This document shows, in pieces, positions 24,802-48,881 of a stretch of 64,000 nucleotides of DNA. The position numbers and the translations under genes were made by a program. A model generated the notes under the pieces. It was not told where the DNA came from, ran no database searches, and saw only the letters and a list, made by a program, of their open reading frames with translations. Every line of letters starts with the position of its first letter. The stretch's first letter is position 1. This DNA is from Shigella phage SP18. The stretch lies in sequence record GQ981382; one strand, given 5' to 3'.

Positions 24802-26333
24802 TGACAACGACTAACACGCTAAAACATATTAGCGATAAATCCGAATATAAAACATTTGACCCGGTGGGAACTTCATTTCCTCCGTCGGTAACAAATGTTC
24901 AGGAAGCATTGGGAGCTTTGGCTCCTATTGCTATTGATGGATTTATCCCAGAATCTACGGTTGCAGTACCAGGTATTATTCGCCTGGCGACCGAACAAGA
25001 AGTTATTGATGGCATAGGCAATAACACTGCGGTAACCCCCGAAACTCTTAAAGCTCGTTTGAATATTCCAACTCAGGCCACAGAGACTGTTGTCGGAATT
25101 ACCCGTTACGCAACCGATGTAGAAGCTATTGATGGCACAGTAACCGATGCAGCTATTGTCCCATCAAGTCTTAAAGCTTCTATTGATAATACATTTAATA
25201 CCCGCACTTCTACAGAAGACCGTAATGGTGTAATTAAGATTTCGACTCAAGCCGCTGCTCTGGCAGGAACAGATGATACAACGGCAATGACTCCTTTGAA
25301 GGTTTCATTGGCCATCGGTGCAGCAACTGCAGCTCTTCCAACTTATAGCACAGCAACAACCACTGTACAGGGGATTGTTAAAATTGCAACCCCAGCCGAG
25401 GTTCAAGCCGGTGCAATGAATAACGGTGTGGCAGTTTCTCCACTTGGACTTATTTCATTGACTGCAAATGCCTCTCGCAGAGGGTTGGTCCAATTGGCTT
25501 CCAGTGCTGAAGCAATTACAGGTACGGATGCAACAAAAGCAATTACCCCACAAGCTCTTCAGGCAAAAACTGGTAATACCGGACGACTTGGTATTGTCAA
25601 ACTGACAACTACCGTTGGTTCAGGGGATGGTAACACTGCTCTTGCATATAATGCAAACGTAATTTCAACCACTGGTGGTACAATTACTGGAACTCTTAAC
25701 GTCAACGGAACTTTACGTAGAAATGGCCAGGACGTTGTAACCCGCAATGAAATTAAAGATGATGTTCCAATCGGAACTATTATTATGTGGGGTGGACAGA
25801 CAGGAAATATTCCTTCTGGTTGGGAAATTTGTGACGGTGGTAATGTCGGTGATGCTGGTTTCCGAAATGTCGTTGGTAGTAAATGGGGCGCAACTGGTAA
25901 TAAGCCAGATTTTCGTGGATTATTCCCTCGCGGTTCCAATAGCTCTAACGATGGCGCTATGAAGGAATGGGAAACAAACATTAATATAAGAAACGCCAAG
26001 GGAAATGATTCCAAACAAAAACCTAAATTGGGTCAAGGTGTTGGTTCATATGGCCATGGTACAGTGCAGGCACAACAACTCCGTTTCCACAAGCACGCAG
26101 GTGGGTTTGGTGAATTTTCTGATGACGGCTCTTTTGGTAATAGCATACGTTCTAATTTTGTAGGGACTAGCAAAAAAATAGACTGGGATAACCGCTCATA
26201 TTATACCAACGAGGGATATGAAATAGATGGTAATAATCGCACCCCTAAAAGTACATTAAACAGCGAAGGTCTGATAGGTAATGAAAGCCGCCCATGGTCC
26301 ATGTCCATTCTTTTTATTATTAAGGTCAGATAA
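24801..26333 (+). CDS. 12: gp12 short tail fibre
   Basis: 510 aa; Thr/Ala/Gly-rich repeats; conserved position. Confidence 0.85.
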   Translation: MTTTNTLKHISDKSEYKTFDPVGTSFPPSVTNVQEALGALAPIAIDGFIPESTVAVPGIIRLATEQEVIDGIGNNTAVTPETLKARLNIPTQATETVVGITRYATDVEAIDGTVTDAAIVPSSLKASIDNTFNTRTSTEDRNGVIKISTQAAALAGTDDTTAMTPLKVSLAIGAATAALPTYSTATTTVQGIVKIATPAEVQAGAMNNGVAVSPLGLISLTANASRRGLVQLASSAEAITGTDATKAITPQALQAKTGNTGRLGIVKLTTTVGSGDGNTALAYNANVISTTGGTITGTLNVNGTLRRNGQDVVTRNEIKDDVPIGTIIMWGGQTGNIPSGWEICDGGNVGDAGFRNVVGSKWGATGNKPDFRGLFPRGSNSSNDGAMKEWETNINIRNAKGNDSKQKPKLGQGVGSYGHGTVQAQQLRFHKHAGGFGEFSDDGSFGNSIRSNFVGTSKKIDWDNRSYYTNEGYEIDGNNRTPKSTLNSEGLIGNESRPWSMSILFIIKVR

Positions 26334-26342
26334 GGAATAAAA

Positions 26343-27920
26343 ATGATTAACAAATTAGAATTAGCGAATCTTCCGTTTGTCGATGGTGTACCAGAAGCTG
26401 ACCAGAAACGAATTGAATGGATTCGCAATGGTGATTGCTTAACTGCAGCCACTACCAAATATGGGCACGATGGTGCCCTTAACGCCGCAGCTTTTGGCGT
26501 ACAGACCAACGTTGAAACTCTGGAAAAGAATGACACAACCACTAAGGACAAAGTAAACGAAATTGTCGATAGTGTTAACCAGATTAAAGAAGCTCTGGAT
26601 ATTTCCACTGATGCAAGCGTTATCCAACAGATTGAAACCAACCGTCTTAATATTGTAAGTCTCCAGACGGGTTTAGCCGAAACTGATATTGCTTTACTTG
26701 ATACCAGCACAAATCTCGGTGAATTACAGGAAGATGTTGGTTATTATAACCCACTGGAAGATGGACCATATTTGACCGTTCGTGCTAATATTAACCGTAT
26801 TAAGCATGAAATGGGCCATTATGCAAACCAAGATATCAATGGTGACCCATTGCCTGAAGGCGAAACTAATGATGCCACCGGGATGAAACGTATTATCATC
26901 GATAACAGTACAGCAATTGCAACTACGCAACGTCGTCTTACTATTCTCGAGGAAAATTACAATGATTCTGATGTAGGTGGGCTCACGATTAAATTAAATG
27001 AGATACGCGAAGAATTAGGTCCGCGTACAGAAGGTATTGGTAAATCTCCTGTTTATACTCGTTTAACTGCAGTCGAAGCTAAAGCCGGAACTAATGAAAC
27101 TGATATAGGGAATATCAAAACCGCAATTGGTTTTGGCCAAGGTCAAAGTATCGCAAACCGTGTCGGGACTCTGGAAACCAAGGCAACAAATTTAGAAAAT
27201 ACCACTTCTGGTATGAATACAAGATTGTCGAAAGTTGAAACAGATATTGGTACTGATGCCGAACCGACTTCCATTAATGGTCGTCTAAAAACGTTGCGTG
27301 ATGACATGACAGGTGTTCGTGTTGTTATCGGGGAAAATACAAGCAGTGGTTTACAGGGACAAGTTGTTGCCCTTAACGTTGCAGTAGGTATTAGTGATAG
27401 CCCGGCACCGACTTCCTTAATTCCTCGTATGCGTGAAGTCGAAACTTCTAGTCGTGCGAACGCTGCAGCTATTCAGGATATTCAGGCTGAAATCGGTAAC
27501 AATCAGTCAGGCATCAAAGGTTCTATCCTGACTATTAAATCACAAATCGATGGGACCAACCCAAACGGTTCGACTGTTGCTGAAAAAGGTATTCTCCCGA
27601 CTGTTGAAGGTCTGGTCAATGAAATGCTGACTAAGCTCAGTGATGCACCATCTGATACGAAGATTTACGGTCGCCAAGACGGTGCTTGGGCCGAAATCGT
27701 TGGTGGTGATATTCCTGCTCTAGTATCACGTGTGGATGGTATCGAATCGCGCACCAGTGGAGCCGAGATACTGATAACTGAACTTGAAGGTAAAGTATCA
27801 GCCTTAGAAACAGAGCTCGCCAAAAGGCCTCCTGTCGCTCCTACGACTGACGGACTTCCTTATGTGCTCGTTGATAATGCATGGGTTCCTTTGTCGACAT
27901 TCGTGACTGTTGGACCATAA
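26343..27920 (+). CDS. wac: fibritin (wac), neck whiskers
   Basis: 525 aa; coiled-coil repeats with C-terminal foldon-like ...DGLPYVLVDNAWVPLSTFV. Confidence 0.85.
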   Translation: MINKLELANLPFVDGVPEADQKRIEWIRNGDCLTAATTKYGHDGALNAAAFGVQTNVETLEKNDTTTKDKVNEIVDSVNQIKEALDISTDASVIQQIETNRLNIVSLQTGLAETDIALLDTSTNLGELQEDVGYYNPLEDGPYLTVRANINRIKHEMGHYANQDINGDPLPEGETNDATGMKRIIIDNSTAIATTQRRLTILEENYNDSDVGGLTIKLNEIREELGPRTEGIGKSPVYTRLTAVEAKAGTNETDIGNIKTAIGFGQGQSIANRVGTLETKATNLENTTSGMNTRLSKVETDIGTDAEPTSINGRLKTLRDDMTGVRVVIGENTSSGLQGQVVALNVAVGISDSPAPTSLIPRMREVETSSRANAAAIQDIQAEIGNNQSGIKGSILTIKSQIDGTNPNGSTVAEKGILPTVEGLVNEMLTKLSDAPSDTKIYGRQDGAWAEIVGGDIPALVSRVDGIESRTSGAEILITELEGKVSALETELAKRPPVAPTTDGLPYVLVDNAWVPLSTFVTVGP

Positions 27921-27945: not shown

Positions 27946-27953
27946 TATAAATA
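27946..27953 (+). promoter_or_regulatory. late promoter TATAAATA upstream of gene 13
   Basis: Exact consensus, follows wac terminator. Confidence 0.65.
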
Positions 27954-27971: not shown

Positions 27972-28910
27972 ATGGCAACTGAATCATACAACCCGAAACA
28001 ATTAAAAGATGCAATCCTTCGTCGTCTTGGTGCTCCAATCACGAATATCGAAGTTACGACCGAACAGGTTTATGATTGTATCCAGCGCGCATTAGAATTA
28101 TATGGCGAATATCATTATAATGGCTATAACAAAGGTTATCAGGCTTTTTATATCGGTCATGATGAAGTTTCACAACAGAAATTCCGTGATGGTGTTTTCG
28201 ATTTAAAAGGTCGTAATATTTTTGCAGTAACGCAGATTATTCGTACTAACGTCGGTTCATTAACTTCGATGGATGGTCAAGCAACATATCCATGGTTCAC
28301 AGATTTCGTTCTGGGGCTGGCTGGTATTAATGGTGGAATGGGTAGTTCGTGTAATAGTTTTGGTCCAAATGCTTTTGGGGCAGACCTTGGTTATTTTACA
28401 CAGCTTATGCAATATCGTTCGATGATGCAAGACCTGATGGTTCCACTTCCAGATTACTGGTATAATGACGATACGGAACAACTTAAAATTATGGGCAACT
28501 TCCGTCAGGGAGATGTTATTGTAATTGAAGTTTACACCAAATCCTTTAATGGTGTTGATGCAATGGCCAGCAATACTGCGGGTTACGGTTATGCTTCTGG
28601 TGATTGTTCAAATCCATGGAATGCTGGTGCACAGTGGGATAACCCTGCACGCAGAATAAGCGGTATGAGAGCCGGTGAGGACTTCGGACTTCAAGATGGC
28701 GCATACAACAACCGTTGGGTGAAAGACTATGCCACGGCACTCGTTAAGGAAGTTAACGGCAACGTATTGGCTAAACACCAGGGAATGATGATGCCAGGTG
28801 GTGTCACAGTTGATGGTGTCCGTTTAATCGAAGAAGCTCGCATGGAAAAAGAACGTCTTCGCGAAGAACTTGACCTGCTGGATGCACCGGCTGGAATACT
28901 AATTGGGTGA
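27972..28910 (+). CDS. 13: gp13 neck protein
   Basis: 312 aa; late promoter TATAAATA at 27946-27953. Confidence 0.85.
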
Positions 28911-29549
28911 TTAATGACTACATACTATAGACTTTATGTATCAACATTTGAAACATCTAATGGGATAATGGTATATGGCGGTAAACGCCATTCACATTAT
29001 GAAGATTCTAAAGCGGATAGTTATTTCGGTTCTGGTACTATTGTCAAGCGAGCTAAACAAAAATACGGAAGGAAATGTTTAGTCGACATTACATGGTCTA
29101 AACCTTTTGAATCGCCTGCTCTATTAAAAGAAGCCGAAGCCTTACTAGTCAGTGAGCTTTTAGAAAGTTTCGATAATTGTGCAAATTTACATCCAACAGG
29201 GGGAGGTGGACCAGAAGGTTATAGTTGTCCAGAAGATTCCCCTGCCTTTGGTAAAAAGAGAACAGCAGAATCAAGAAAACGAATGTCAGACGCAGCAAAA
29301 CAAAGGGAATGGTCAGAAGAAGGATTAAAACGTCGTAAAGAATCAACAGCTCGAATGTGGATTGATTTTAAGGACAGACATCCAGATTTTTCTGATGATA
29401 AAAATCCGGCCGCGCGTAAAATTATTACCGGCGACCTAGAATTTTGTACCGGAAGAAAATGTGCAGAATATTATTCGATAACACCGGCGACGGTCATTTA
29501 CAGATGTAAAAGTACAGCCGAAAAATGGAAATTATGGAATTATGCGTAA
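28911..29549 (+). mobile_element. free-standing GIY-YIG-type homing-endonuclease cassette inserted between genes 13 and 14
   Basis: Genes 13 and 14 are adjacent in T4; inserted ORF has homing-endonuclease hallmarks. Confidence 0.5.
28914..29549 (+). CDS. putative GIY-YIG-type homing endonuclease (seg-like) with NUMOD3-like motifs and I-TevI-like C-terminal DNA-binding tail
   Basis: Inserted between genes 13 and 14 (adjacent in T4); degenerate GIY/YIG segment YRLYV...IMVYGG; C-terminus ...[16 protein letters not shown] resembles I-TevI end. Confidence 0.6.
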
Positions 29550-30330
29550 TTCTTATGATGCAAGCTTATTCGCTCGGCTCGAAGATGGAACCGGGTATGA
29601 CAATACAAACTCGTCAGAGATACTCAACCAATATGTAAACTTTATGCATCATGAAAATACCCAGACTTTAGCAGATGCTATTGTTGCTGAAAGTATTCAG
29701 ATGCGCGGAATGTCTCTCTATTATATCCCAAGACAATTCGTTAAACCAGATTTGTTATTCGGTGAAGACCTCCAGAGTAAATTTGATAAAGCATGGAAAT
29801 TTGCTGGTTATCTGGATACGTTCGATGCTTATCAGGGTGATGGTTCTATCTTTAGTAAATGGGGTATGTCTGTGAACGATGAAATCACAATATCGATTAA
29901 CCCTAATCTGTTTAAACACCAATGCAATGGAACTGAACCTATTGCCGGGGATTTGATTTATTTCCCTCTTGATAACAGCCTGTTCGAGATAACCTGGGTG
30001 CAACCTTATGACCCGTTCTATCAGGTAGGTCAAAACGCCATTCGTAAAATAACTGCGAGCAAATACATTTACTCCGGGGAAGAGCTTAAACCTGAATTAC
30101 AACGAAATGAAGGTATTAATATTTCAGAATTCAGTGAGCTCGATTTGCAACCAATCCACAATATCGATGGCCTTACAGATATCAGCGATATCCCTTATGC
30201 AGAATCCGATGAGATTAACGCAGAAGCGGCTGAATATGTTAAACCATATTTTGTGCAGAACGGTCGTGGACTTGAGTCTCCTCCTAAGGCAAAACAGGAT
30301 AGCTTTGACGATAGTTTCTTTGACGAATAA
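29542..30330 (+). CDS. 14: gp14 neck protein
   Basis: Strong similarity to recalled T4 gp14 (...ILNQYVNF...[24 protein letters not shown]...). Confidence 0.9.
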
Positions 30331-31249: not shown

Positions 31250-33556
<2,307 letters not shown>

Positions 33557-33585: not shown

Positions 33586-35565
33586 ATGGCTTTATTATCC
33601 CCGGGCATTGAGCTCAAAGAAACAACGGTCCAAAGCACTGTTGTTCGTAACGCGACGGGTCGTGCGGCGCTGGTTGGTAAATTCCAGTGGGGCCCAGCTT
33701 TCCAGGTAACTCAGATTACAAACGAAGTAGAACTTGTTGATTTGTTTGGTGGCCCGAACAATATCACGGCTGACTACTTTATGAGTGGAATGAACTTCCT
33801 TCAATATGGTAATGACCTGCGTACTGTTCGTGTAGTTAACCGCGACCACGCTAAAAACGCATCCCCGGTAGCAGGGAACATTGAAAGTACAATCGCTACT
33901 GCTGGTTCTAACTATGCAGTCGGTGACGCTATCCAGGTTAAATACAACCAGACTGTTGTTGAAACTTCTGGCCGTATCACCAAGGTTGACGTTGACGGGA
34001 AAATCCTCGCGGTCTTCATTCCGTCTGACAAAATTATTTCCTTTGCAAAATCTGTAAACCAGTATCCCGCTTTAGGCTCGGCTTGGACTGCTGAAATCCT
34101 GACCACTTCTTCAGGTGTGTCTGGCACGATTACCCTCGGGAAAATTGTTACCGATTCTGGTATCCTGTTGACCGAAGCAGAAAATAGTGAAGAAGCTATT
34201 ACCTCTCTGGAATTCCAGGCTTCCCTGCAGAAATATGCAATGCCGGGTGTTGTTGCTCTTTATCCTGGTGAAATCGGTTCGACTCTCGAAGTTGAAATCG
34301 TTTCCAAAGCTGCTTATGATGCTGGCTCTTCAAAGATGCTTGACATCTATCCGAATGGCGGTTCCCGTGCTTCTGTAGCTCGTGCAGTGTTTAACTATGG
34401 CCCACAGTCTGACGACCAGTATGCAATCATCGTTCGCCGTGATGGTGATATCGTTGAAAACGTCGTTCTGTCAACTAAAGAAGGCGATAAAGACGTTTAC
34501 GGCAACAACATTTATCTGGATGACTACTTTGCAAAAGGTACTTCCAATTACATCTATGCAACTTCTCTGAACTGGCCAAAAGGTTTTGCAGGCATCATCA
34601 ATCTGATGGGCGGTATTTCTGCAAACGACCAGGTGACCGCTGGTGATTTGATGCAAGGTTGGGACCTGTTTGCTGACCGTGAAGCACTGCATATTAACCT
34701 GCTTATTGCTGGTGCTTGTGCTGGTGAAGGTGATGCGACTGCTTCCACTGTTCAGAAGCACGTAGTTTCTATCGCTGACGAACGTCAGGATTGCTTGGCA
34801 TTTATCTCTCCACCGAAAGGTCTGTTGGTTAACGTTCCCCTGACCCGCGCAGTGGATAACCTGATTGACTGGCGTACAGGTAGTGGTGCATTTGATACTG
34901 ATAACATGAATATCAGCACGACTTATGCAGCGATTGATGGCAACTATAAATATCAGTATGATAAATATAACGACGTTAACCGTTGGGTTCCTCTGGCAGC
35001 TGATATGGCTGGTCTGTGTGCTCGTACTGATGATGTTTCTCAGCCTTGGATGTCTCCGGCCGGCTATAACCGTGGTCAGATTCTGAACGTTCTGAAATTG
35101 GCAATCGAACCACGTCAGACTCAACGTGACCGCATGTATCAGGAAGCTATCAACCCGGTTGTTGGTTTCGCAGGTGGCGATGGTTTTGTTCTGTACGGTG
35201 ATAAGACTGCAACTAAAGTTCCATCTCCGATGGACCATATCAACGTTCGCCGTCTTACGAATATGCTGAAGAAAAATATCGGTGACGCATCCAAATATAA
35301 ACTGTTTGAGCTTAACGATAACTTCACTCGTGCATCATTCCGTATGGAAACTTCTCAATACTTGGATGGTATTCGTGCGCTCGGTGGCATTTATGAAGGT
35401 CGTGTAGTTTGTGATACTACTAACAACACCCCAGCGGTCATAGACCGCAATGAGTTCGTTGCTAGCATTTATTATAAGCCTGCGCGCAGCATCAACTATA
35501 TACAGCTTAATTTCGTAGCCACTAGCACTGGTGCTGATTTTGATGAGTTGATTGGGCCACAATAA
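33586..35565 (+). CDS. 18: gp18 tail sheath protein
   Basis: 659 aa as in T4; late promoter TATAAATA at 33549-33556. Confidence 0.9.
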   Translation: MALLSPGIELKETTVQSTVVRNATGRAALVGKFQWGPAFQVTQITNEVELVDLFGGPNNITADYFMSGMNFLQYGNDLRTVRVVNRDHAKNASPVAGNIESTIATAGSNYAVGDAIQVKYNQTVVETSGRITKVDVDGKILAVFIPSDKIISFAKSVNQYPALGSAWTAEILTTSSGVSGTITLGKIVTDSGILLTEAENSEEAITSLEFQASLQKYAMPGVVALYPGEIGSTLEVEIVSKAAYDAGSSKMLDIYPNGGSRASVARAVFNYGPQSDDQYAIIVRRDGDIVENVVLSTKEGDKDVYGNNIYLDDYFAKGTSNYIYATSLNWPKGFAGIINLMGGISANDQVTAGDLMQGWDLFADREALHINLLIAGACAGEGDATASTVQKHVVSIADERQDCLAFISPPKGLLVNVPLTRAVDNLIDWRTGSGAFDTDNMNISTTYAAIDGNYKYQYDKYNDVNRWVPLAADMAGLCARTDDVSQPWMSPAGYNRGQILNVLKLAIEPRQTQRDRMYQEAINPVVGFAGGDGFVLYGDKTATKVPSPMDHINVRRLTNMLKKNIGDASKYKLFELNDNFTRASFRMETSQYLDGIRALGGIYEGRVVCDTTNNTPAVIDRNEFVASIYYKPARSINYIQLNFVATSTGADFDELIGPQ

Positions 35566-46689: not shown

Positions 46690-48189
46690 ATGGATATTAA
46701 AATCAACTTTCTAAATTTTAGTCACGTGCATGTTGAATGTGAAGATGGAATCTTCTACGAACTCCGTGATTACTTCAGCTTCGAAGCTGAAAACTATCGC
46801 TTCAATCCAAAGTTCAAGCAGGGAGTTTGGGACGGACGAATCCGCCTCCTGGATTACAATCGTAAATTACCATACGGTTTGGTTAATCAAATTAAAAAGT
46901 TCGCTGACCAGTTTGGTTATTCATTCTGGATTGACCCGCAAATCACCGAGAAAGAAGAAATCTCTCGCGAAGAATTCGACAAATGGGTTGAGTCAAAAGA
47001 AATCTATTCAGGCAATACCAAGATAACGCCTCATTGGTATCAATCTGACGCCGTATATGACGGTCTGGTCAACAGAAGAAAGATTCTGAACTTACCTACG
47101 TCTGCAGGTAAAAGCCTCATCCAGGCGCTTCTGGCGCGATATTATCTCGAGAACTATGAAGGCAAGGTGCTTATCCTTGTTCCTACAACCGCGCTTGTTG
47201 ACCAGATGATTAATGACTTTGTTGATTATCGGCTTTTCCCTCGTGAAGCTTGTCTGGGTATTCGTTCCGGGACTAAACGCGATTCTGATGCGATGATTTA
47301 TGTATCGACTTATCAGACGGCTGTAAAACAACCTAAAGAATGGTTTGGCCAGTTTGGCCAGTTTATGAATGACGAATGCCACATGGCTACAGGTAAATCG
47401 ATTTCGACGGTTATCGAAGGCCTTACGAATTGCATGTTTAAATTTGGTCTGTCAGGTTCACTCCGTGATGGCAAAGCCAACCTTATGCAATATATGGGTC
47501 TGTTTGGTGATATCTTTAAACCAGTATCAACATCCAAATTGATGGAAGATGGCCAGGTTACTGACCTTAAAATAAATAGTATTTTCCTTCGTTACCCTGA
47601 TGAATTCACTGTTAAAATGAAAGGTAAAACTTATCAGGATGAAATTAAGGTAATTACAAAAGCTACACGCCGAAATAAATGGGTAACAAATCTTGCTCTC
47701 AAGCTTGCTAAAAAAGATGAAAACGTCTTTTTGATGTTTAAGAATATCGAGCACGGTAAATCGATGTTTGAAATGCTTAAGGAAGCTGGTCATGAGAAAG
47801 TGTATTATGTTTCCGGGGAAGTTGATACCGAAACCCGTAATGCTCTGAAGGTCATGGCAGAGAATGGAAAGGGAATTATTGTTGTAGCTTCATACGGTGT
47901 ATTCTCAACGGGGATTTCCGTTAAAAACCTCCATCATATTATTTTCGCTCACCCGGTCAAGTCAAAGGTAATTGTACTCCAGACAATTGGTCGTGTGCTT
48001 CGAAAACATGAATCCAAATCACAAGCAAACGTTTTTGATATCGTTGATGATATGGGTGTTAAACCTAAATCAGCAAATGCTAAAAAGAAATATGTTCATC
48101 TTAACTTTGCCCTAAAACATGGCCTTGAACGTATACAACGATATGCTGATGAACGTTTTAACTATGTAATTAAACAGGTGGAAATTTGA
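46690..48189 (+). CDS. uvsW: UvsW helicase
   Basis: ATG at 46690; MDIKINFLNFSHV... and helicase motifs (LPTSAGKS, MNDECH) match recalled T4 UvsW; late promoter at 46654-46661. Confidence 0.9.
   Translation: MDIKINFLNFSHVHVECEDGIFYELRDYFSFEAENYRFNPKFKQGVWDGRIRLLDYNRKLPYGLVNQIKKFADQFGYSFWIDPQITEKEEISREEFDKWVESKEIYSGNTKITPHWYQSDAVYDGLVNRRKILNLPTSAGKSLIQALLARYYLENYEGKVLILVPTTALVDQMINDFVDYRLFPREACLGIRSGTKRDSDAMIYVSTYQTAVKQPKEWFGQFGQFMNDECHMATGKSISTVIEGLTNCMFKFGLSGSLRDGKANLMQYMGLFGDIFKPVSTSKLMEDGQVTDLKINSIFLRYPDEFTVKMKGKTYQDEIKVITKATRRNKWVTNLALKLAKKDENVFLMFKNIEHGKSMFEMLKEAGHEKVYYVSGEVDTETRNALKVMAENGKGIIVVASYGVFSTGISVKNLHHIIFAHPVKSKVIVLQTIGRVLRKHESKSQANVFDIVDDMGVKPKSANAKKKYVHLNFALKHGLERIQRYADERFNYVIKQVEI
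48168..48185 (+). repeat. 18-bp direct repeat AATTAAACAGGTGGAAAT, copy 1 (3' end of uvsW)
   Basis: Exact second copy at 48860-48877 at the 3' end of the HNH endonuclease gene. Confidence 0.9.
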
Positions 48190-48877
48190 ATTATCAAAAA
48201 ATATATGATGATTTAATTGGGAGTCGAAAGGCTTCCAAACCGATTGGATACACGGAATCTCACCATATCATTCCAGAATGTATGGGTGGACCTGATACAC
48301 AAGAAAACAGAGTCAACCTTACTCCGGAAGAACATTTCGTTGCGCATAAATTATTGGCCAAAATTCATCCTAATCATTACGGTCTTATAAAGGCCGTCAT
48401 TGCTATGGGTATGAGCTCTCGAACACATCAACGACAATTCAATAAATCGTATGGATGGGAGCGTAGACAAATGTCAGTTCTTCAAACTGGTGAAGGCAAT
48501 CCTTTTTATGGTAAACACCATACTGAAGAACATAAAGAATATATGAGCCAATTATTAAAGGGTCGCAAAATAACTTGGGCTGATAAAATATCCGCGACAA
48601 AGAAAGCGAATCCGTATAAATACTCTCAAGCACAATGTCAAGCTATATCTGAAAGAAATAAAGGTGAAGGTAATTGGATGTATGGTAAATCACATACACC
48701 AGAAGCATCAAAGAAAATTTCAGATAAAGCAAAAGAACGTTATAAGGACCCATCCAAAAATCCTGCCGCTAAGAAAGTGGTTTTAAACGGGATTGAATAT
48801 GGTTCGATGAAGCAAGCTTCTGTAGCAACGGGGCTTTCTTTATATAAAATCAGAAATTTAATTAAACAGGTGGAAAT
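48186..48877 (+). mobile_element. free-standing HNH homing-endonuclease cassette inserted between uvsW and uvsW.1
   Basis: HNH ORF bounded by 18-bp direct repeats; uvsW and uvsW.1 are adjacent in T4. Confidence 0.6.
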
Positions 48878-48881
48878 ATAA
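48186..48881 (+). CDS. HNH homing endonuclease (mob-like) with NUMOD3-like repeats
   Basis: TTG start overlapping uvsW stop; ESHHIIP...N...EH HNH core; inserted between uvsW and uvsW.1. Confidence 0.7.
   Translation: MNYQKIYDDLIGSRKASKPIGYTESHHIIPECMGGPDTQENRVNLTPEEHFVAHKLLAKIHPNHYGLIKAVIAMGMSSRTHQRQFNKSYGWERRQMSVLQTGEGNPFYGKHHTEEHKEYMSQLLKGRKITWADKISATKKANPYKYSQAQCQAISERNKGEGNWMYGKSHTPEASKKISDKAKERYKDPSKNPAAKKVVLNGIEYGSMKQASVATGLSLYKIRNLIKQVEI
48860..48877 (+). repeat. 18-bp direct repeat AATTAAACAGGTGGAAAT, copy 2
   Basis: Exact match to 48168-48185; both encode the terminal IKQVEI. Confidence 0.9.

Follow-up and report, generated by a model that had tools for sequence, protein, structure and literature searches.

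A predicted Seg-type homing endonuclease gene, apparently copied in recently, between neck genes 13 and 14 of Shigella phage SP18

The ORF at 28914–29549 and its setting

The window analysed here is a stretch of 64,000 nucleotides from the genome of Shigella phage SP18 (GQ981382). In this window we identified a free-standing ORF, hereafter HEG for the homing endonuclease gene that it is predicted to be, between the genes for the neck proteins gp13 and gp14, which are direct neighbours in T4 with 1 nt between them (T4 sequence). The region contains the following features.

27946–27953, plus strand: consensus of a T4-type late promoter, TATAAATA, located 19 nt before gp13 (motif scan)
27972–28910, plus strand: gene 13, neck protein/head-tail adaptor Ad2, 312 aa (phrog_211, E 6.7e-42; annotated gp13 in relatives)
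28890–28920, plus strand: putatively co-converted left flank, differing from relatives that lack HEG by 10 substitutions and a 4-nt insertion (alignments)
28914–29549, plus strand: HEG, ATG start, 211 aa, assigned to the Seg type (PHROG, homologues, dN/dS)
28914–29213, plus strand: predicted GIY-YIG catalytic domain, aa 1–100, with a SegF-type motif and conserved Y8, Y21-G22-G23, E75 and N91 (profiles, alignments, AF2)
29226–29363, plus strand: basic linker, matching NUMOD3 once below threshold and containing a further basic stretch of similar kind (Pfam, homologues, AF2)
29376–29546, plus strand: predicted I-TevI-type helix-turn-helix (HTH) DNA-binding domain at the C-terminus, aa 155–211 (profiles, Foldseek, hhalign)
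29542–29549, plus strand: gp14 start within the last HEG codons (W-N-Y-A-stop), ATGCGTAA (raw sequence)
29542–30330, plus strand: gene 14, neck protein/head closure Hc2, 262 aa (Pfam T4_neck-protein, E 2.4e-101)
29552–29631, plus strand: HEG-linked tract of 80 nt at the 5' end of gp14 (alignments; search of 31 records)

The gp13 stop codon TGA (28908–28910) is followed by a 3-nt spacer and then by the HEG ATG at 28914, and a Shine-Dalgarno-like GGTGAT (28906–28911) overlaps this stop. At the other end of the ORF, ATGCGTAA contains both the gp14 ATG and the HEG TAA, an overlap of 8 nt. The sequence-only reading of this DNA had described a 211-aa ORF that separates two genes adjacent in T4 and overlaps the gp14 start with its last 8 nt; both statements were borne out, with all coordinates correct, by the ORF listing, the sequence itself and the profile matches of gp13 and gp14. 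HEG is a stand-alone ORF that lies outside any intron or intein, and its flanking genes adjoin each other in T4 and in HEG-less relatives. The N-terminus of SP18 gp14 reads MRNSYDAS.., as it does in the other carriers, compared with MATYDSR.. in relatives that lack HEG. The base composition across the insert showed no clear anomaly.

The HEG protein gave a full-length match to PHROG 314 “homing endonuclease” (E 1.8e-29). Homologues with 48–100% identity were found in 65 phage records by tblastn, a protein-database search returned nine homologue clusters (52–99% identity), and an exhaustive HMMER search returned 7069 relatives at E<=0.001. Comparison of the SP18 allele with that of phage vB_EcoM_VR26 over the whole ORF gave 36.5 synonymous and 8.5 non-synonymous differences, corresponding to a dN/dS of 0.05. 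The PHROG match, the homologues and this ratio together argue that the ORF did not arise by chance. Overall, we regard it as a real gene under purifying selection, mobile and selfish, of the well-known T4 Seg (GIY-YIG) kind. We also considered the start at Met19 that is used in the shorter VR26 annotation. This was rejected, because residues 1–18 form beta-strand 1 and carry the positions R6, L7, Y8, F12, S15 and G17, which are invariant across genera.

The late promoter motif occurs 21 times in the window, compared with 4.8 matches expected. On the plus strand, no such motif was found between 27954 and 33049, and thus none within HEG; the next one lies at 33050. Because the copy at 27946 is the only upstream late promoter on this strand, gp13, HEG, gp14 and gp15 are probably carried on one late transcript, and HEG is most likely a promoter-less cassette in this 13-14-15 message. 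Scans for sigma-70 promoters and terminators returned hits at or below the chance level. Promoter-less cassettes are known from T4, in which segC, segF, segG and several mob genes are of this kind (PMC2988022).

Upstream of the gp14 ATG in SP18 there is only a weak GGA. Based on the conserved overlap with HEG (8 or 14 nt, see below) and this weak Shine-Dalgarno sequence, coupling of gp14 translation to that of HEG by termination and reinitiation is plausible; the sequence-only reading had also taken the overlap to imply coupled translation of gp14. Translational coupling, as well as elements that downstream genes require and that are embedded in HEGs, has been described in T4 (PMC2988022). RNA folding gave z-scores of -0.97 at the HEG start, -0.31 at the gp14 start and +0.26 at the empty junction, with no sign of a regulatory hairpin; neither RNA structure nor a strong Shine-Dalgarno sequence backs any particular model of translation at these starts.

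Domain architecture of the HEG protein

For remote comparisons we used a family profile of ten homologues and a wider set of 43 relatives that match the N-terminal domain. In hhalign comparisons with the family profile, T4 SegF was matched with a probability of 98.5% (E 2.8e-15, residues 2–102, 35% identity) and T4 SegD with 96.7% (E 4.2e-10, aa 19–194 against 18–210). The N-terminal domain of T4 SegE was matched with E 6.9e-7 (BLASTP E 6e-8), and I-TevI proved collinear over aa 42–209 (E 7.9e-7). In the latter alignment, E75 and N90 of I-TevI fall on E75 and N91 of the HEG protein, both of which are invariant in the ten homologues and the 43 relatives.

The equivalents of the GIY and YIG motifs are R6-L7-Y8 and Y21-G22-G23. 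They represent a variant form that is invariant in the 10 homologues and aligns to FYRTY and WYAGK of SegF, with a motif spacing of 13 residues as against 11 in I-TevI. Across the wider set, Y21, G23, Y37, G39-S40-G41, E75 and N91 are invariant (43/43), and Y8 is conserved in at least 90%. The catalytic R27 of I-TevI, part of the helix that follows YIG, falls on H28, which is not conserved, and no equivalent of this arginine was identified by alignment. The neighbouring K24, R25 and H26 are conserved among close homologues only; a GK(H) pattern is also present in SegD, SegE and SegF. The AlphaFold2 model has a pLDDT of 72–88 over aa 1–90 and a predicted beta-beta-alpha-beta-alpha topology, as in the GIY-YIG catalytic fold, in which helices flank a sheet of three strands.

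Searches with the SP18 protein alone were less informative. Pfam gave no match to GIY-YIG (PF01541) or SegE_GIY-YIG (PF19835) at E<=1, and the PF19835 threshold was reached only through relatives (6 of 43). A phmmer search of the PDB with the single protein returned no match, and a Foldseek search with the model retrieved no GIY-YIG structure.

The catalytic domain is followed by a basic linker, in which NUMOD3 was matched at aa 109–125 with E 0.01 and 16.2 bits, below the Pfam cut-off of 20.4; one homologue passes with 20.7 bits. The linker is modelled with low confidence (pLDDT <50 over aa 91–115). A zinc finger is absent from it, C105 being the sole cysteine within aa 100–160, and I-TevI residues about 143–180 are mostly unmatched in the hhalign alignment. 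The alignment reaches residues 197–244 of I-TevI. The C-terminal part of the family profile (aa 147–206) matched the DNA-binding domain of I-TevI (PDB 1i3j, E 3.4e-5), which was also the top Foldseek match of the model. Six close homologues match PF20987 (I-TevI_DNA-bd) with E down to 1.6e-10, and the SP18 protein alone gave no match to it at E<=1. NCBIfam TIGR01453 “group I intron endonuclease” was matched at aa 107–208 with E 0.0024, below its cut-off.

These profile and structure results support a protein in which a SegF-like GIY-YIG domain is joined by a basic linker, similar to NUMOD3, to a C-terminal HTH of the I-TevI/SegD kind. The sequence-only reading had arrived at a similar layout, with a degenerate GIY-YIG N-terminus, NUMOD3-like basic repeats and an I-TevI-like tail. 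The tail holds (1i3j and the PF20987 matches of the homologues), and so does the GIY-YIG assignment, as supported by SegF, SegD and the collinear I-TevI in the profile-profile check of the fold that it had proposed. The term degenerate does not, the motif being a normal SegF-type variant (YRLY...VYGGKRHS...DSYFGSG), and the repeats reduce to the single sub-threshold match, clear repeats not being found. None of the tests run placed the protein in a non-nuclease family.

Distribution of the gene and the patch around it

SP18 is a Gaprivervirus (VR7 group of Tevenvirinae), and the 2.5-kb region around HEG is 93–96% identical to Gaprivervirus phages. In the phage collection, HEG is present in five Gapriverviruses besides SP18 (vB_YenM_P8, pEC-M719-6WT.2, TH40, vB_EcoM_RZ and VR26) and absent from 21, including VR7, VR20, VR25, 212 and P896. 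The comparison with relatives lacking the insert, which the sequence-only reading had put forward, thus yielded exact boundaries: the insertion follows codon 4 of gp14 (codon 4/5), with a length of 635 nt in SP18 and of 631 nt in VR26. Where the site is empty, the two neck genes share one base (..GGGCTAATGGCTACTTATGAC..), so that gp14 is normally coupled to gp13. In VR26, HEG begins on the original gp14 ATG (TAATG; MATY-YRLY..).

Sequence changes are present on both sides of the gene. On the left, the last seven gp13 codons of SP18 encode PAGILIG* in place of PTPILVG*, a replacement that is common to P8, M719, RZ and TH40 and is not found in VR26. On the right, the tract at 29552–29631 differs by 15–16 substitutions from every HEG-less Gaprivervirus and by 0–3 from every carrier. 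A search with 29552–29700 across 31 records gave a bimodal distribution with no exception, carriers being 96.6–100% and non-carriers 87.9–89.9% identical.

In a sliding comparison, the backbone of SP18 was closest to the HEG-less phage 212, with 94–100% identity over most of 23.9–34.4 kb. The four P8-type carriers are 48–74% identical to SP18 in wac and 85–98% in gp13. The mismatches to one phage of each type are distributed as follows.

27972–28859 (gp13 body): 24/888 against 212 (no HEG), 60/888 against P8 (HEG)
28890–29631: 25/107 alignable positions against 212, 3/742 against P8
29829–30330: 8/502 against 212, 29/502 against P8

By these counts, SP18 carries a patch of the P8 type within a backbone of the 212 type. 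At 28890–29631, this patch is 99.6% identical to the HEG-carrying phages. It spans at least 742 nt (28890–29631) and at most about 970 nt (28860–29828), and so extends beyond the gene by at most about 55 nt on the left and by 80–280 nt on the right. Its pattern is the one expected of break-initiated gene conversion, of which it would be the sequence footprint, and HEG appears to have been copied recently into SP18 between neck genes 13 and 14. Since T4-like phages recombine so freely, exchange with no targeted break could in principle also have produced the patch. We consider 29552–29631 the candidate region in two respects: in genomes that lack HEG, for the site that the enzyme recognises or cleaves, and in carriers, for their resistance. 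The target in phages without HEG would then comprise the junction together with the 5' end of gp14, and the insertion together with the linked substitutions would render carriers resistant.

Homologues of HEG occupy the 13/14 junction in five genera (Gaprivervirus, Tequatrovirus, Krischvirus, Slopekvirus and Dhakavirus). Those outside Gaprivervirus share 49–59% identity with HEG and were found at 13/14 in Tequatrovirus F2, Krischvirus G5211, Slopekvirus phT4A, Dhakavirus vB_EcoM_005 and the unclassified Klebsiella phage RCIP0008. In all four genera with a readable junction (the neck ORFs of the Dhakavirus record are fragmented, and the count covers the other four), the gp14 ATG lies within the conserved C-terminal W-N-Y codons of HEG, and the two genes overlap by 8 or 14 nt. 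In Slopekvirus and Krischvirus, HEG has its own spacer and a strong Shine-Dalgarno sequence (GGAGGA or GGGGGA). Krischvirus phiS (194 aa, 31% identity, E 6e-8 against the SP18 protein) and E26 (311 aa) have more distant genes of the Seg type at this junction. Both match Pfam SegE_GIY-YIG (29.8 and 35 bits, respectively; cut-off 25), and both overlap gp14 by 8 nt. Taken together, the homologues of the family and these two genes mark the 13/14 junction as a hot spot for such elements.

In some genera, HEG also uses the original start of gp14. The cassette of F2 is bracketed by ATGGCAACATAC (MATY, HEG start) and ATGTCGACGTAT (MSTY, gp14 start), the T4 sequence being ATGGCTACTTAT; the two brackets represent an imperfect duplication of the first four gp14 codons. 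A conversion tract was also sought in Tequatrovirus by comparing F2, which carries HEG, with T4, which does not. None was visible, identity being 65–90% throughout and the two phages too diverged.

Proposed homing cycle, alternatives and known relatives

We propose that HEG encodes a functional homing endonuclease and belongs to the free-standing genes of the T4 Seg type, a reading to which we assign a probability of roughly 0.85, with nuclease activity predicted from the sequence. HEG would be transcribed late in the 13-14-15 message from the promoter at 27946 and translated beside the gp13 stop codon. In a mixed infection, the HEG protein would cut the intact 13/14 junction of a relative, at or near the junction itself, and repair of the break by recombination with the HEG-carrying genome would copy the gene and a short flank into the cut genome. 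Protection of the carrier would come from two features: the conserved start region ATGGCTACTTATGA of gp14 is interrupted by the insertion, and the first 80 nt of gp14 bear about 15 linked substitutions. The element would also provide gp14 with a new start codon within its own last codons. Termination of HEG translation and synthesis of gp14 would then probably be coupled, and with a clean deletion of the element the gp14 start would be lost.

Part of this evidence is also compatible with a domesticated or inactive endonuclease that no longer cuts, is kept for the start and translation context of gp14 or as a DNA-binding regulator, and spreads by ordinary homologous recombination. The lack of a Pfam GIY-YIG match for the SP18 protein and of an equivalent of the catalytic arginine would fit this explanation. 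Because the ORF contains the gp14 start, selection would act against its deletion with an active and an inactive nuclease alike, and for the regulator variant there is a precedent in the documented autorepression by I-TevI, which acts at its operator (PMC2988022). However, the dN/dS of 0.05 holds for the whole ORF, the catalytic domain included, and Y8, Y21, G23, E75 and N91 show little or no variation among the 43 distant relatives. The same motif variant is found in SegF, which is given as active (Table 1, PMC2988022). Moreover, the patch is tightly centred on the gene within a backbone of another lineage, as break-initiated conversion predicts. We therefore regard an inactive protein as unlikely. 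An active enzyme with its target outside 13/14 and a main role in competition or as an accessory (marker exclusion directed at co-infecting relatives, or recombination-driven amplification or repair), as opposed to its own homing, is less probable still. In its favour, the cuts of Seg enzymes are often made hundreds of bp away from the gene (PMC2988022), and the abstract of PMC13096335 links SegB to immune evasion by amplification. Against it, the perfect linkage of the right-flank allele to HEG in 31 records and the fidelity of the family to one site in five genera both point to a target at or next to the junction.

Returning to a functional homing endonuclease, the most unusual aspects of HEG are the capture of the gp14 start and its fidelity to one site across genera. 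Tentatively, we suggest that a single Seg-type lineage has remained faithful to the gp13/gp14 junction in five genera of Straboviridae, maybe through what we term start-codon capture. The cassette may be bracketed by an imperfect duplication of the MATY codons, of which the left copy starts HEG and the right copy, read in another frame within W-N-Y, starts gp14. Synthesis of gp14 would thereby come to rely on translation of HEG, and a phage that lost the element precisely would not survive. If true, start-codon capture would constitute an addiction-like mode of retention, distinct from the embedded promoters of T4.

GenBank entries for identical or near-identical proteins are labelled “homing endonuclease”, “GIY-YIG endonuclease” or “putative endonuclease ... 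SegC”. The 13/14 site is absent from the list of 15 T4 HEGs in the review cited above (PMC2988022), and our literature search returned no description of an endonuclease at this junction. Based on these labels and the absence of the site from both sources, we class HEG as an uncharacterised member of the known Seg group and of an ordinary kind. Its annotation is routine by itself; its value lies in providing a clean natural example of intron-less homing, in which genomes of both the donor and the recipient type are found, the limits of the conversion tract can be placed to within tens of nucleotides, and the candidate target is the conserved, essential start region of a neck gene. The locus also illustrates how two structural genes with coupled translation can accommodate a selfish gene and stay intact, the latter donating a new start codon. 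This makes it a testable case both for the retention of HEGs and for coupling that tolerates an inserted cistron. The predicted enzyme, with its SegF-type nuclease and I-TevI-type HTH and no zinc finger, would be a compact candidate for new GIY-YIG specificities.

Among characterised enzymes, T4 SegF has a homologous catalytic domain, with the common motif (F/Y)YR.Y...Y(A/G)GK.(H)(E/S)...D.Y.GSG...KYG...WSK...E.E..L...C.N(I/L)..GG.GG, and shares the PHROG assignment (it is labelled phrog 314 in a T4 record). Like HEG, segF is a promoter-less cassette in an existing transcript and abuts the upstream ORF (PMC2988022). The C-terminal halves of the two proteins are unrelated, the alignment ending at aa 102. 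The two genes also differ in insertion site (56/soc for segF, 13/14 for HEG) and in their overlaps, which involve 11 bp of the upstream gene in segF and 8 bp of the downstream gene in HEG. The activity of SegF has been demonstrated, whereas that of the HEG protein is a prediction. T4 SegD, encoded between genes 23 and 24, is collinear with the HEG protein over both domains, including the basic linker and the C-terminal HTH, and is likewise flanked by late structural genes, although identity is only about 25%. The segD gene lies on the strand opposite to its neighbours and lacks an obvious promoter (PMC2988022), whereas HEG is co-oriented with its neighbours and tightly packed between them.

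I-TevI, encoded in the td intron of T4, shares with the HEG protein the order of GIY-YIG domain, flexible basic linker and C-terminal HTH, as well as late expression, which in SP18 is predicted. In contrast to this intron-encoded enzyme, the HEG protein is free-standing, 34 aa shorter and devoid of a linker zinc finger; the helix bearing Arg27 in I-TevI is replaced by a loop, and HEG possesses neither its own late promoter nor its own operator. The segG gene of T4 contains the promoters of gene 32, which favours its retention (PMC2988022), whereas HEG contains the start and first codons of gp14 and no promoter. The junction of the VR26 allele, which begins on the gp13 stop codon (TAATG), resembles that of T4 mobE, which begins on the stop codon of nrdA (UAAUGA) (PMC2988022) and, unlike HEG, encodes an HNH enzyme.

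Endonuclease genes at the gp13/gp14 junction

Genes at this junction were also found in the gp13/gp14 regions of four relatives, each numbered in coordinates local to its own region.

L017 1295-1879: Seg-type GIY-YIG gene of Krischvirus phiS, 194 aa
L018 874-1809: Seg-type GIY-YIG gene of Krischvirus E26, 311 aa
L016 1237-1879: homologue in Krischvirus Brandy, with an apparent frameshift after about codon 21
L002 1511-2146: endonuclease ORF of VR26 (KP007362.1)

The phiS and E26 genes are far more distant Seg-type relatives that occupy the identical gp13/gp14 site, and each overlaps the gp14 start by 8 nt. Both proteins exceed the Pfam SegE_GIY-YIG threshold. The gp13/gp14 junction is a hot spot at which several homing endonuclease lineages have inserted.

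The apparent frameshift in Brandy falls in an A-run, GGTAAAAGATAT, and the annotation covers only the 141-aa C-terminal ORF; this homologue is a copy in decay or else reflects a sequencing error. The VR26 endonuclease is annotated in GenBank from an internal methionine as a protein of 193 aa, which leaves out the conserved first beta-strand with the tyrosine equivalent to that of “GIY”. The ORF in fact starts on a TAATG that also holds the stop of gp13.

A second endonuclease gene between uvsW and uvsW.1

The window carries a second free-standing homing endonuclease gene, inserted in the uvsW/uvsW.1 interval and flanked by a direct repeat.

48186-48881 (+): homing endonuclease gene, 231 aa, TTG start
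48167-48185 and 48859-48877: perfect 19-nt direct repeat TAATTAAACAGGTGGAAAT

In the encoded protein, visual reading picks out an HNH-like motif (ESHHIIP..N..LT..EH..H); Pfam matches two NUMOD3 motifs (E 6.7e-19), and the C-terminus holds an HTH like that of I-TevI. Its TTG start overlaps the uvsW stop. The repeat is the duplicated uvsW 3' end and takes in the Shine-Dalgarno of the downstream gene; because of this duplication both uvsW and the endonuclease ORF terminate in ..IKQVEI*. Among the relatives, UPEC01, DK-13, M719 and TH40 carry the uvsW-linked gene, and VR7, VR20, 212, RZ and others are without it; based on this presence and absence, the uvsW-linked and 13/14 genes assort independently.

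Mosaic boundaries and late-promoter motifs

Additional mosaic boundaries were observed at window positions ~25300-27900, the wac (fibritin) region, and ~33700-34400. The window wac shows only 48-74% identity to the endonuclease-carrying relatives versus 94-100% to phage 212 across most of its length. The stretch at ~24900-26200 has also diverged from 212 (70-89% identity). At 33700-34400 the window is 212-like again (96-100%, versus 68-88% to the P8 group).

Matches to the T4 late-promoter consensus, TATAAATA, number 21 in the whole window (4.8 expected), and 15 of these lie within 21422-51237 on the + strand. This is consistent with a block of late structural genes in a T4-like phage.
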